DNA of 10,895 bases from a virus, in the UHGV virus genome UHGV-1779514. The stretch is one strand, 5' to 3'. The notes below the pieces were generated by a model. The model searched no databases and was not told the origin of the DNA. It was given only the letters and a program-made list of their open reading frames with translations. How positions within the stretch are numbered: the first letter of the stretch is position 1; every line of letters starts with the position of its first letter. Below are positions 3,832 through 10,579 of the stretch, in pieces. The translations under genes and the position numbers were made by a program.

Positions 3832-4560
3832 TTATTCCTGAATGCGCTTAAACTCGATTACCCACACCCAGGGATTAGCGTTCCAGCTTTCTTCACCATA
3901 GATGGATTCCCACAGGCGCTGGAACGCAACCTTGGCCATTGCGAAATCCCCCTTGGGAGTAAGGAATGTTCCCGGGTGATCAGGAAGCAAACTTCCAGCA
4001 GGCGGAACGCCCTCATCCCTTGCATCGCATTCGCTGATATTGTTCAACCGCTCAACGCGCACGTTGGTAATTTCCAACAGGATGCGTGATGCCCAGCGCG
4101 GCATGTGAATTGATGGACGCCACCCACCATCAAACTTTTCATTCACAGTGTGAGGTTTCCAGTCGGCATCATCGGGTATCGACCATAAACCGTAATCACC
4201 AGGCTTTTGCTCACAACTGGCCCGATAAATCCTTGCTGCGTTCTTCTCATCGCCACGACAAAGGTTGTCGTTCCAGTCCACACTGCAACCATCTTCATTG
4301 CCTAATATCGCCCATGTTTCACGAACCCAAATTCGATCGCCGACGATACCAAAGGGGCAATTGAAAACACTGCTTACACCATCAGCCCCGTACCACTGAA
4401 AACCTGCACCAATTTCCCTAACCATCACTGGTGCTTCTGGACCAACTTCCGCAGGCTGATTTTTCATTATCCGCCGCGTCTGCGTTTTCCTTCCTTCGAG
4501 GATGGCTCGGACCATCTCATCGTTGAAAATCATGCCGCGCTCTTTCACTTCGCCTTTCAT
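3832..4560 (-). CDS. ASCH-domain-like (PUA-fold) protein, 242 aa
   Basis: ORF track entry. N-terminal MIFNDEMVRAILEGRKTQTRR matches the G-x-K-T-x-x-R opening motif I associate with ASCH domains; C-terminal WVWVIEFKRI is also typical. True start may be the second ATG (Met10). GGGGGA lies 3 nt before the first ATG. Confidence 0.5.
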   Translation of the reverse strand: MKGEVKERGMIFNDEMVRAILEGRKTQTRRIMKNQPAEVGPEAPVMVREIGAGFQWYGADGVSSVFNCPFGIVGDRIWVRETWAILGNEDGCSVDWNDNLCRGDEKNAARIYRASCEQKPGDYGLWSIPDDADWKPHTVNEKFDGGWRPSIHMPRWASRILLEITNVRVERLNNISECDARDEGVPPAGSLLPDHPGTFLTPKGDFAMAKVAFQRLWESIYGEESWNANPWVWVIEFKRIQE

Positions 4561-4569
4561 GCATCCCCC

Positions 4570-4656
4570 TTACCCATGCGCGACGATGCCGCAAAAAGTG
4601 ATAGAGAACAGCCAGAAATAGATCGCGGCCATAATGATTTTGAATGCCGTGTTCAT
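4570..4656 (-). CDS. 28-codon hydrophobic micro-ORF (MNTAFKIIMAAIYFWLFSITFCGIVAHG), probable single transmembrane helix
   Basis: Hand-translated; below track cutoff. Minus-sense reads CAGGAGCTGAAAAT-ATG (AGGAG, 8-nt spacer). TAA stop at 4572..4570 is 9 nt before the ASCH-like ATG. Confidence 0.35.
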   Translation of the reverse strand: MNTAFKIIMAAIYFWLFSITFCGIVAHG

Positions 4657-4684
4657 ATTTTCAGCTCCTGTGATTGATTGGATA

Positions 4685-4714
4685 CATGCCGCGCCTTACG
4701 GCATGTTTTTATTT
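4685..4714 (+). terminator. intrinsic-terminator-like hairpin on + strand (CATGCCG-cgcctta-CGGCATG followed by TTTTTATTTT)
   Basis: 7-8 bp GC-rich stem then a T-rich run on the + strand only. No + strand gene ends here; minus-sense flank is not U-rich. Confidence 0.4.
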
Positions 4715-4726
4715 TCACTTTCTCTG

Positions 4727-4757
4727 GTTTAAAAATCAAGATTTATTAGAGCAATTA
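4727..4757. repeat. downstream copy of ~30-bp imperfect direct repeat (GTTTAAAAAT-N7-TTATTAGAGCAAT) at the cassette boundary
   Basis: 13-mer TTATTAGAGCAAT at 4743..4755 is identical to 6884..6896; the flanking TTTAAAAAT is also shared. About 26 of 33 positions match. Overlaps the HAD gene stop codon. Confidence 0.6.
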
Positions 4758-5261
4758 TTGTTGATGGAGAAGCGCGTTTTCATACTCCCTGACCATTAAC
4801 GTAAGTACGCCGTGACTCCTGAAAACACGCGCCACTTCAATCTTATCTTCCAGCGCGAACGCAATTTTACTTAGACCAATTTTCTTCAGGAGATCAATCT
4901 TTGCTGGACCGTCATTTCTGTCATCGGTGGCAGGACGCATAGATAGCAAAGGCTCCGCCCCATTTGTTACGTGCTTACGCAACCAGGCTCGTGTTTTATC
5001 CCTTGCTATCTCACAGCGCCCGGTTACAAACCAGAGGGTGTAAATGCCGGACAACTGGCGCACCATATCAATAACTGGAGTGATGGGAGCATCAGTGTCA
5101 CAGGCAAGGTTAAACTCGTTCCAGTGCTCTGTTAATGCACCTTTGCCAGGTGGTGGAAGTAAATGCAGTCTGTCTTCCGTTGCCTCTGATATCGTCCCAT
5201 CAATATCTACTATGACGATGTACGGACGTTCCTGGTGTGCGTGTTTATTGAAAATACTCAA
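4755..5261 (-). CDS. HAD-superfamily phosphatase, 168 aa (possibly polynucleotide 3'-phosphatase or nucleotidase type)
   Basis: ORF track entry. Motif I VDIDGT (DxDGT) near the N-terminus, later TGR and ALEDK acidic motif. TTG start at 5261..5259 with AGGAGG 4 nt upstream and an in-frame TGA just before it. Subfamily is a guess. Confidence 0.6.
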   Translation of the reverse strand: MSIFNKHAHQERPYIVIVDIDGTISEATEDRLHLLPPPGKGALTEHWNEFNLACDTDAPITPVIDMVRQLSGIYTLWFVTGRCEIARDKTRAWLRKHVTNGAEPLLSMRPATDDRNDGPAKIDLLKKIGLSKIAFALEDKIEVARVFRSHGVLTLMVREYENALLHQQ

Positions 5262-5278
5262 ATGCCCTCCTCATTGGA

Positions 5279-5314
5279 CGAAAAAAATGCTGGTGGGAGC
5301 ACTCCACCAGCATT
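5279..5314 (-). terminator. strong rho-independent terminator (minus sense) between the 420-aa gene and the HAD gene
   Basis: Perfect 10-11 bp GC-rich stem (5286..5296 pairs with 5304..5314, loop 5297..5303). Minus-sense RNA then carries a run of 7 U. + strand flank is not U-rich, so it is unidirectional. Confidence 0.65.
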
Positions 5315-5333
5315 AAAAGTGACACTGTAACTA

Positions 5334-6596
5334 TCAGCGAACGTAAATAGTGCCGCCGTTCTCTTTTTCCCATGCATCGCTACGTGCATAGCAAACATCG
5401 AGAAGTCTTCTTGCCGCAGTTTCCTCTAAACCCAATTCGACAACCAACTGCTCATGACGGCGGGTAACCACATCAAACAGGGTATGCAACCCTTTAGTTG
5501 CCAGATCATCAATGAATTCCGGTTCGAACGGCAGCTCTGTATCTGCCAACATAACCTCTTGCGCCCACTCAACTCGACGGACCAATTCCGGGCGGCGGCT
5601 TTCCATCTCTTTACAGATCAATTCATGGAAGAACTCTACCCAACCTTCCGGCTGGAACTCGCGGAAAATTGCCAACGGCTGGAAGTTTGGCATCAACCAT
5701 TCGTTGATTCGGATATCAATGGCATAGCCCATGTCGCAGCAGAACTGATAAGCAAAGTCCAGCTTAGAAACGATATAAGGACGCTCGTTATTGAACTCTT
5801 TAGGCGATGAGATCCCATAAGCCAGGAGGCGCGGGAAGAAGGAGATTTGCCCTAACGTCGGATGAAGTTTGCTTGCAGGGAAACGGCGCTCAGTAATGCC
5901 ATACATTTCCTTCTTGAGCGTCGCAAATTTGGCATTCTCATTAACCAGCGCGGTAACCTCTGCTTTTTTATTAGCAAATGCCACGCGCGCCTCGCTTGCA
6001 TCTTTAATAGTTTTTTTGAGCTGTTGGTTAAGGTCGGCGACCTGCTTACGCAGTTCCTGTCGCTCGCTTTTAGCTTTGTTATAGCGTTTCTCAAGGTTAA
6101 AAGGATCAAGTTTCATGATCTCTTTATATTGAGATTTTAGCGTTGAAATCTGTGAGTTCCGCAGTTCAACCATCGCGGTCATTTCATTGAGTTTTGTTTC
6201 CAGCTCAATGCTTATACGTTCGGCATTATCAGCACGCTGGTTGGCGTCATGCGTCGCATCGTCGATCGCGTCCTGTTGCTGGCGTTTCAAATGTTCAATT
6301 TCCAGCTGAAGCTCTTCAATTTCTTTACCCTTCAGACCGAGATCCAACTGCATATTTTCAGCTGCATCTACCAGGGAGTTATGGCTATCAGCTTCTGCGT
6401 TATAAACATCAATAAGCTGTGCGTGAAGCATCTCCGCTGACTGAACCGCATTATCAAAAAAACGCGCTGTGAGGTCATCACAACTAACGCGGCGTTGCGC
6501 GGCCCGGATGTTCTGGATAATGGCCGGGATACCGGCATTCAGGACATCAGGGATACATACATTTTCGATTGATTGGTTTTGTGCTGAAGTGCTCAT
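5334..6596 (-). CDS. coiled-coil protein of unknown function, 420 aa (coiled coil ~aa 85-230, globular C-terminal domain ~190 aa)
   Basis: ORF track entry. ATG at 6596..6594 lies 1 nt after the TGA of the upstream 72-aa ORF. Heptad-rich E/K/Q/L region. No Walker A, ligase KxDG or nuclease motif recognised. Confidence 0.65.
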   Translation of the reverse strand: MSTSAQNQSIENVCIPDVLNAGIPAIIQNIRAAQRRVSCDDLTARFFDNAVQSAEMLHAQLIDVYNAEADSHNSLVDAAENMQLDLGLKGKEIEELQLEIEHLKRQQQDAIDDATHDANQRADNAERISIELETKLNEMTAMVELRNSQISTLKSQYKEIMKLDPFNLEKRYNKAKSERQELRKQVADLNQQLKKTIKDASEARVAFANKKAEVTALVNENAKFATLKKEMYGITERRFPASKLHPTLGQISFFPRLLAYGISSPKEFNNERPYIVSKLDFAYQFCCDMGYAIDIRINEWLMPNFQPLAIFREFQPEGWVEFFHELICKEMESRRPELVRRVEWAQEVMLADTELPFEPEFIDDLATKGLHTLFDVVTRRHEQLVVELGLEETAARRLLDVCYARSDAWEKENGGTIYVR

Positions 6597-6597
6597 T

Positions 6598-6816
6598 TCA
6601 AAGTTCCGTATTAGCTTGTGCTTCGGTCATTTTTCCTAAGTATGAAGGAGGAAGGACTACGCAATTTGTATCCAGTCCCTCACCTATGGCAGCCTGTAAA
6701 ATTCTGGCTAAGGTGAGTCTCTTGTTGCGATACCTGGTGATGACATGCCTGATACCGCCGGTCGGCGTAACAAAGGCGATCAGCCAGTAGTGATATTTCC
6801 GTCGGAATGGCCACAT
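6598..6816 (-). CDS. small basic protein, 72 aa, first gene of the cassette
   Basis: ORF track entry. ATG at 6816..6814 preceded by AAGGTG (4-nt spacer). Stop tightly coupled to the 420-aa gene. No family recognised. Confidence 0.45.
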   Translation of the reverse strand: MWPFRRKYHYWLIAFVTPTGGIRHVITRYRNKRLTLARILQAAIGEGLDTNCVVLPPSYLGKMTEAQANTEL

Positions 6817-6830
6817 AGTGCACCTTGTAG

Positions 6831-6843
6831 ATTGCTCTAATAA
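6831..6843. repeat. inverted copy (ATTGCTCTAATAA) of the boundary 13-mer; forms a 13-bp palindrome with 6884..6896 around the terminator hairpin
   Basis: Exact reverse complement of TTATTAGAGCAAT at 6884..6896, 40 nt apart. Confidence 0.6.
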
Positions 6844-6876
6844 AAAACGTGATGAGTGTACATCACGTTTTAAAAA
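6838..6876 (-). terminator. hairpin terminator after the GT8-like gene (stem AAAACGTGATG / CATCACGTTTT, loop 6855..6860); A-run upstream and T-run downstream, so potentially bidirectional
   Basis: 11-bp inverted repeat at 6844..6854 and 6861..6871. Minus-sense RNA has UUUUUUAUUA after the stem. Stem is moderately AT-rich, so strength is uncertain. Confidence 0.45.
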
Positions 6877-6898
6877 TATGGAATTATTAGAGCAATAT
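6868..6898. repeat. upstream copy of the ~30-bp imperfect direct repeat (TTTTAAAAAT-N7-TTATTAGAGCAAT) at the cassette boundary
   Basis: See 4727..4757. This copy ends 2 nt before the GT8-like gene's TAA stop (6898..6900). Confidence 0.6.
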
Positions 6899-10433: not shown

Positions 10434-10579
10434 TTTTGTTTCCTCGTGAAGAACCTACTTAAGGGCAGAATGATACATTTCACAATCAAAATTGCACTAA
10501 TAATTTTCTTTTATTGAGTTAAATATTCAACAAATGACTAGCAGTAGAATCACCATCATCTATTTCTGGCAGGCTGACT
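10434..10579. promoter_or_regulatory. AT-rich divergent intergenic region, likely carrying the promoter(s) of the leftward operon and of the + strand gene
   Basis: ~150 nt non-coding and AT-rich between oppositely oriented gene starts. I found no convincing -35/-10 pair by eye. Confidence 0.3.

Follow-up and report, generated by a model that had tools for sequence, protein, structure and literature searches.

How is the pap gene of P1-like phage-plasmids transcribed if a hairpin with the appearance of an intrinsic terminator stands directly in front of it? The question is raised by a stretch of 10,895 nucleotides from the UHGV virus genome UHGV-1779514 (referred to as the window), which derives from a P1-like phage-plasmid and has all of its genes on the minus strand. 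The junction under study is pmgS-pap of phage P1: the upstream 420-aa gene is pmgS and the downstream 168-aa gene is pap. The surrounding 2.1 kb share 97–99% DNA identity with P1, P7, SJ46, RCS47, and other Punavirus records, and across the 2.1-kb pmgS-pap query the identity to the E. coli plasmid pMTY13773_p0111 reaches 100%. This region was found in approximately 1,000 E. coli records, nearly all of which are plasmids. Coordinates of the features are listed in Table 1.

The GenBank records of P1 (AF234172) and P7 (AF503408), as annotated by Lobocka et al. (2004), were used as the reference annotations. In AF234172, the operators Op86a and Op86b are placed with the promoter PpmgR before pmgR, with a record note that refers to the control of pmgR and pmgS expression. 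They are followed by pmgS, by pap with the identical TTG start, and then by the C1 operator Op88 and the promoters of the next operon, which begin at the pap stop codon. The window has the same genes, the TTG-initiated 168-aa pap coding sequence, and the C1 operators Op86a/b and Op88, while its genes downstream of pap are P7-like, unlike P1 pmgT. The C1 operator consensus was matched four times in the window, compared with 0.04 matches expected by chance. Op86a overlaps PpmgR, the sigma-70 promoter predicted for the pmgR-pmgS(-pap) unit. Op88 overlaps the pap stop codon, likewise in the lineages L085 and L090, and an overlap of the pap stop with the next C1 operator was seen in all pap-bearing lineages. 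In a survey of P1-like phage-plasmids, pmgR and pmgS were among the most conserved genes and the hypervariable region began at pmgT (PMC9603915), which places the pmgS-pap junction at the boundary between a conserved and a variable block. No terminator is annotated at this junction in AF234172, but the silence of the record is uninformative because no terminators are annotated across the ~60 kb of it that were examined. Literature searches, which covered sources other than the P1 genome paper, returned no mention of a pmgS-pap terminator.

Table 1 Features of the pmgR-pmgS-pap region in the window.
Feature	Position	Strand	Description and evidence
C1 operator Op86a (OpmgRa)	6880..6896	-	ATTGCTCTAATAATTCC, consensus match; homologous site annotated in AF234172
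C1 operator Op86b (OpmgRb)	6831..6847	+	Operator consensus match; AF234172 annotation
ORF	6598..6816	-	ORF call; PHROG 3177 (4e-47); P1 annotation; essentiality according to PMC9024508
pmgS	5334..6596	-	420 aa, coiled-coil, "putative morphogenetic function"; 98–99% DNA identity to P1 and relatives; PHROG 1660 (6e-195); annotation
Conserved 13-nt motif	5319..5331	-	GTTACAGTGTCAC, just past the pmgS stop; one copy per locus in 84 loci
Terminator hairpin (predicted)	5286..5314	-	11-bp stem, 7-nt loop; -18.1 kcal/mol, z = -5.0; covariation
Terminator U7 tract	5281..5287	-	7 T; 6–8 T among P1-group variants; ~83761–83767 in AF234172
Shine-Dalgarno of pap	5266..5271	-	AGGAGG; GGAGG core conserved in L085, L094, and L096
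pap	4755..5261	-	168 aa, TTG start; Pfam, PHROG; same CDS in P1, P7, and RefSeq
C1 operator Op88 (OpmgT) and promoters of the next operon	4739..4755	-	ATTGCTCTAATAAATCT, 1 mismatch to consensus; annotation

The hairpin lies on the same strand as pmgS and its stem begins 19 nt past the pmgS stop codon (TGA at 5336–5334). The arms AATGCTGGTGG (5314–5304) and CCACCAGCATT (5296–5286) form 11 pairs, 6 of them G-C, and enclose the loop AGTGCTC (5303–5297); a conserved core of 9 bp is made up of UGCUGGUGG and CCACCAGCA. The first two T of the U7 run double as the last two bases of the stem. On the opposite strand the sequence after the stem reads TTAAAAG, and the U run is thus present on the sense strand only. 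The end of the U run is 9 nt from the Shine-Dalgarno sequence and 19 nt from the TTG. In the initial annotation, a GC-rich hairpin of 10–11 bp with a U7 tract had been noticed between the 420-aa gene and the HAD gene, in agreement with the 11 bp and seven U seen here, while its distance of 14 nt to the HAD gene is corrected to 19 nt. Folding of the 45-nt segment yielded -18.1 kcal/mol as compared to -6.7 ± 2.3 kcal/mol for shuffled sequences (z = -5.0), and none of the 200 shuffles was as stable. The hairpin was the top-ranked terminator-like site of the window and the most stable combination of a hairpin and a T run in the ~71 kb scanned, which consisted of the 10.9-kb window and ~60 kb of the P1 record, including an L001 segment that is homologous to the window. 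The features expected of an intrinsic terminator, namely a G+C-rich stem-loop, an adjoining U tract, placement after a stop codon, and a stem kept in relatives, are all present, and the former description of the site as an intrinsic terminator appears sound in view of its fold stability, rank, and stem conservation.

Conservation of the stem was examined in a closely related sample of 84 P1-group loci and in divergent lineages that were collected by a PmgS protein search and contig look-ups; a genome-contig search with Pap recovered only two near-identical loci. Among the 84 P1-group loci, substitutions and indels were located in the loop (T/G, +T, +C), in the length of the T run (6–8), and in the flanks. 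Only two substitutions occurred in the stem, both changing G-C to G·U. Three divergent lineages (Cronobacter L085, Salmonella L094/L095, and L096), whose PmgS proteins are ~70% identical to that of the window and 86–89% identical to each other, have retained the hairpin, the T7 run, the GGAGG core, and the TTG. One stem pair is G-C in P1, G·U in L094, and A-U in L085 and L096, and a second pair has changed from U-A to U·G in L096. The 9-bp core is paired in all 13 distinct variants, with four of the nine pairs varying and none broken; three of the variable core pairs change to wobble pairs only. When the stem register was shifted, pairing fell to 29–69%. Support from the shuffle control for covariation was modest (18 of 500 shuffles attained the observed score) because there are few independent covariation events.

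A perfect 11-bp inverted repeat may also be, in the main, a palindrome bound by a protein at the DNA level, or a 3'-end or processing hairpin that stabilizes the pmgS mRNA. Terminator hairpins also serve as 3' stabilizers, and the roles are not exclusive. As the principal function of the repeat, however, either role is very improbable. All four one-sided stem changes result in G·U on the sense RNA and in A·C if the other strand is read, and they break the DNA palindrome, which points to an RNA structure in the direction of the gene. In addition, the position of the U7 run is invariant, and the loop holds most of the variation, as would an RNA stem-loop. The pattern of substitutions argues for a true RNA structure.

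Neither a sigma-70 nor a P1 late promoter for pap was found in the 260 nt upstream of the gene. A relaxed scan of 5240–5520 detected no sigma-70-like site with at least 8 of 12 matches, and a sigma-70 promoter within or before the hairpin was rejected on this ground. A profile of the late promoters annotated for P1 (eight sites; consensus AAGTGACTT-N4-TAnnAT) gave a best score of 2.8 at pmgS-pap, compared with 13.7–21.6 for these sites themselves. The palindrome AGTGTCACT followed by TTTAAT, located upstream of the hairpin, was considered as a P1 late promoter and rejected with a profile score of 2.8 at most. The profile recovered the LP26/LPpmgL pair at 10522–10550 of the window. These two late promoters are arranged back to back with a common -22 box and are intact, as is a C1 operator at 10491–10507. 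The minus-strand block from ~10.5 kb to the terminator would therefore also be readable from a late promoter.

Scans based on a consensus overlook weak or activator-dependent promoters, and pap RNA is only moderately below pmgS RNA in a rough RNA-seq comparison (see below). Both points would agree with a weak or unconventional promoter of pap itself, in the 3' end of pmgS or overlapping the hairpin, in which case read-through would not be needed. Such a promoter is nevertheless unlikely: besides the negative scans, the junction contains no C1 operator, unlike the other early units in the window, the U tract and the Shine-Dalgarno sequence leave only 9 nt between them, and transcripts begun before the hairpin would run into the terminator anyway. 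Since no recognizable promoter of pap is present, its transcription would have to cross the terminator. The initial annotation had called for either read-through or an embedded promoter; the first of the two is retained, and the second is unlikely, as neither type of promoter was found.

Expression data were taken from Table S1 of a P1vir RNA-seq preprint (bioRxiv 10.64898/2025.12.28.696737), which gives log2 fold changes relative to a no-phage sample in the wild-type host. The values at 10 min are 7.96 (pmgR), 8.21 (pmgS), 5.52 (pap), and 8.93 (pmgT), and those at 20 min are 9.36, 10.04, 8.08, and 10.84, respectively (bioRxiv 10.64898/2025.12.28.696737). Thus, pap is significantly induced at both times and less so than either of its neighbors. 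These values are gene-level, start from a near-zero baseline, and are neither length-normalized nor strand-resolved at the nucleotide level, so the efficiency of termination is not derivable from the fold changes. A crude length correction places pap RNA at ~0.4–0.6 of pmgS RNA, a ratio that would imply a fairly leaky terminator. In the host lacking hfq, pap moves with pmgS and against pmgT; at 10 min pmgS is ~2.4-fold and pap ~3.8-fold over-induced, while pmgR and pmgT are under-induced (bioRxiv 10.64898/2025.12.28.696737). The latter data hint that parts of the pmgR-pmgS-pap transcript differ in processing or stability, and because pmgR behaves opposite to pmgS despite their being in one operon, transcript processing complicates a simple reading. 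Overall the RNA-seq pattern agrees with partial termination of a common transcript. An older P1vir RNA-seq paper contains no values for the absolute expression of these genes.

The hairpin is probably an ordinary Rho-independent terminator of the C1-repressed pmgR-pmgS unit that acts as a constitutive partial stop, with pap being expressed by read-through. According to this model, lifting of the repressor would allow RNA polymerase to initiate either at PpmgR (Op86) or at LPpmgL, a late promoter lying further upstream, and to transcribe pmgR and pmgS, and the hairpin with its U7 tract would release most of the polymerase. The pap message would come from the remainder that passes this point. 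It would be translated from the TTG by means of the AGGAGG 9 nt beyond the U tract, and the read-through transcripts would extend past Op88, which overlaps the pap stop, into the following C1-controlled operon. The terminator would be an unregulated partial stop that functions without a phage antiterminator, leaving pap RNA less abundant than pmgS RNA. We infer that termination occurs at this site, that it is partial, and that read-through supplies the pap mRNA, which suggests a reduced synthesis of Pap. The low or conditional expression formerly proposed for the gene survives in part: an attenuated expression of pap is plausible, while its dependence on antitermination is unsupported, as no alternative fold upstream of the hairpin, no Rfam element in the window, and no antiterminator domain in ten window proteins was found.

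The latter result comes from several searches. In the 300 nt upstream no antiterminator pairing was identified, and 5240–5620 contains no repeat or complement of either arm. The hairpin was intact in both the minimum free energy and the centroid folds of the 241-nt context. An alternative antiterminator fold was rejected as a regulator since neither arm has a competing partner, and a known RNA family at the site was likewise discarded, as no Rfam element was detected in the window at E ≤ 1. A Pfam scan of ten window proteins recovered no antiterminator domain, and the searchable literature contains nothing on antitermination in P1.

These negative results bear on the possibility that read-through is regulated, with an efficient terminator to which the polymerase is made resistant by a phage or host factor or by a cis-acting RNA element, so that pap would be expressed conditionally. 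Several observations could be read in this way: two clades whose PmgS proteins differ by ~30% have both kept the arrangement of terminator, Shine-Dalgarno sequence, TTG, and pap, which is missing from lineages that lack pap; the hairpin is closely preceded by a conserved 13-nt motif; and the ratio of the pap and pmgS fold changes is somewhat higher at 20 min than at 10 min, and is also raised at 10 min in the hfq deletion. Against them stand the lack of an alternative pairing, Rfam element, antiterminator domain, or report of P1 antitermination within the scopes given above, and the timing of pap RNA, which is already increased at 10 min together with pmgR and pmgS, as partial read-through predicts. 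We regard regulated read-through as improbable, and the antitermination-dependent expression proposed initially is not borne out by this timing.

The 13-nt motif has the general form GTTACNNTGTCAC, in which two GTNAC pentamers are 3 nt apart, and lies 2–5 nt after the pmgS stop. It was present as a single copy in 84 of the 98 loci examined, always at the same position, and was absent from positions 1–48000 of P1. Its places in the other lineages are 4266–4278 in both L085 and L087, 3766–3778 in both L094 and L096, and 2333–2345 in L097, in the last case on the opposite strand. The region of the motif contributes the 5' arm to a small hairpin in L087 and L088. The motif is kept at ~70% PmgS identity with or without a terminator and pap downstream. 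Its occurrence in lineages that lack pap or the terminator, and its inversion in L097, are unlike an RNA site of the nut or put type, and the motif is possibly unrelated to the terminator.

The arrangement of the junction differs among P1-like lineages. In the P1 clade and in the clade of L085, L094, and L096, pap is the gene directly after pmgS; it begins with TTG and is preceded by the terminator. In the most distant clade (L088 and L090, PmgS ~53%), pap has an ATG start that overlaps the stop codon of a preceding 101-aa gene (TAATG), no terminator precedes it, and L090 carries an extra exonuclease gene in the interval between pmgS and Op88. In L087, L097, and L098, pap is missing and pmgS is not followed by a canonical terminator. 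The interval from pmgS to Op88 (4360–5153 in L088 and 4262–5616 in L090) is a variable slot among P1-like elements, which contains pap, orf101 and pap, an Rv2179c-like exonuclease with orf101 and pap, or, as in L087, L097, and L098, nothing. Because the pap-less lineages have no terminator, it is not a universal end of the pmgRS unit but accompanies a directly abutting pap, and this leaves room for a role specific to pap. The loss of the terminator together with pap is compatible with one deletion of both and with an arrangement selected to lower pap expression. In an extended form of the latter, which is improbable, terminator, Shine-Dalgarno sequence, and TTG would constitute a selected expression cassette for Pap, preserved as a whole throughout the divergence of the two P1 clades, whose read-through might be modulated, for example by Hfq or by a factor recognizing GTNAC-N3-GTNAC. 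If this were true, a nucleic-acid 3'-phosphatase would be held at a low or timed dose in lytic growth.

The sequence after the U tract consists of CGTCCAATG, AGGAGG (5271–5266), GCAT, and TTG (5261–5259). The 4-nt spacer between the Shine-Dalgarno sequence and the TTG is short yet usable. An upstream extension of pap is ruled out by an in-frame TGA at 5273–5271, three codons before the TTG and overlapping the Shine-Dalgarno sequence, and no in-frame ATG or GTG is present in the window pap ahead of the DIDGT nucleophile motif. Downstream, an alternative start is available as ATG in L085 and L094 and only as CTG in L096, and the codon distance from the TTG to PYIV-DIDGT is equal in these three lineages. 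The same 507-nt coding sequence with the TTG start is given for P1 and P7 in GenBank and by RefSeq/PGAP. The comparative evidence indicates that the TTG behind AGGAGG is the real start of pap, in agreement with the initial annotation, which had also taken the in-frame TGA as an argument against an ATG-initiated extension. Its view that the TTG signals deliberately low expression is weakened, since TTG is the start codon of 4 of 65 curated P1 genes (pmgL, pap, lxc, and prt, which encodes the portal) and the full Shine-Dalgarno sequence compensates. Automatic calls for pap disagree among the relatives: the call is 4208–4840 in L085, 3864–4340 in L094, and 3837–4340 in L095. One of them adds 43 codons through the terminator into pmgS, which is possible because no in-frame stop lies between, one uses an internal ATG, and one uses the TTG. 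The conserved Shine-Dalgarno sequence and TTG favor the TTG among these discordant calls, and the start of pap is thereby settled where gene callers place the starts of relatives inconsistently.

Pap matched the Pfam family HAD_PNKP (PF25109) with 44.1 bits, above the gathering score of 27.6 (E = 3e-11), as well as PHROG 415 (6e-56) and, in the T4-Pnkp-like PHROG 505, the phosphatase half (4e-16; positions 156–292 of 295). It is ~40% identical to proteins of ~160 aa from T1-like phages that are designated "polynucleotide kinase/phosphatase". A search of solved structures returned only a marginal match, to Pnkp1 (E = 0.036). The motifs D19-I-D21-G-T23, T80 (VTGR), K121, and E138-D139, of which HAD motifs II–IV were assigned by inspection, are all retained in L085, L094, L096, L088, and L090. 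Pap shares the HAD family PF25109 and the DxDGT nucleophile motif with the phosphatase domain of T4 Pnkp/PseT and with the stand-alone proteins of T1-like phages and, unlike T4 Pnkp/PseT, has no kinase domain. From family membership, Pap is a stand-alone PNKP-type HAD phosphatase with a predicted 3'-phosphatase role, for which the literature searches returned no assay; its old name, acid phosphatase, was given by homology only. The HAD enzyme acting on nucleic-acid or nucleotide phosphates that had been proposed initially fits this family, which is consistent with a nucleic-acid 3'-phosphate substrate. Across lineages, the identity of Pap is similar to that of PmgS (73% versus 71% for the lineages with ~70% PmgS identity, and 59% versus 53%), and its being conserved as well as PmgS indicates a functional gene. 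A CRISPRi survey and the deletion study cited in it describe pap as non-essential for plaque formation (PMC10695390).

The proposed partial stop can be compared with known systems. Internal partial terminators are known from the E. coli rpsU-dnaG-rpoD operon, where one separates rpsU from dnaG, and from T7, where T-phi follows gene 10. In such systems, as proposed here, the terminator follows a more highly expressed gene, a promoterless next gene is expressed via read-through, and a low-abundance enzyme is encoded behind the terminator. Those two terminators have been measured experimentally, whereas that of pmgS-pap is predicted from sequence, and T-phi acts on T7 RNA polymerase. The lambdoid N/Q systems (tR1, tL1, tR') also have terminators inside phage units before genes that are needed after induction, but they require nut/qut sites and the N and Q proteins, and no such element, fold, or window protein was found here. 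P1 late control operates by promoter activation through Lpa, which is consistent with the annotated late promoters. While pmgS, pap, and the TTG start of pap are already on record, the predicted intrinsic terminator between pmgR-pmgS and pap, with its comparative support, is an unannotated element. Its reach is mainly that of annotation and it opens no new mechanism; it may be of use in engineering P1 phagemids and interpreting P1 transcriptomes.

Further small elements were noted next to the C1 operators. At 6842–6869 (minus strand), a second terminator-like hairpin (AACGTGATG-TACACT-CATCACGTT, T6 run, -11.1 kcal/mol) is placed between the inverted Op86a and Op86b, around the predicted start of PpmgR. 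It could be a damper on read-through from pmgQ to pmgR or a mere by-product of the operator layout. At 4684–4706 (plus strand), a stable hairpin is located in the leader of the operon that follows Op88, with equivalents at ~4891–4917 in L085 and 5642–5673 in L090. In the window and in P1 its T run is on the antisense strand, and it would halt transcription approaching pap from downstream. Other lineages have a hairpin at the same place after Op88, followed by repeats of the AATCAATCA type. Directly behind Op88, a 28-codon ORF at 4570–4656 (minus strand) with a Shine-Dalgarno sequence encodes the hydrophobic peptide MNTAFKIIMAAIYFWLFSITFCGIVAHG. A similar hydrophobic peptide ORF is present in L087, and a "membrane protein" is annotated at this place in SJ46; the ORF looks like a C1-controlled small membrane peptide.
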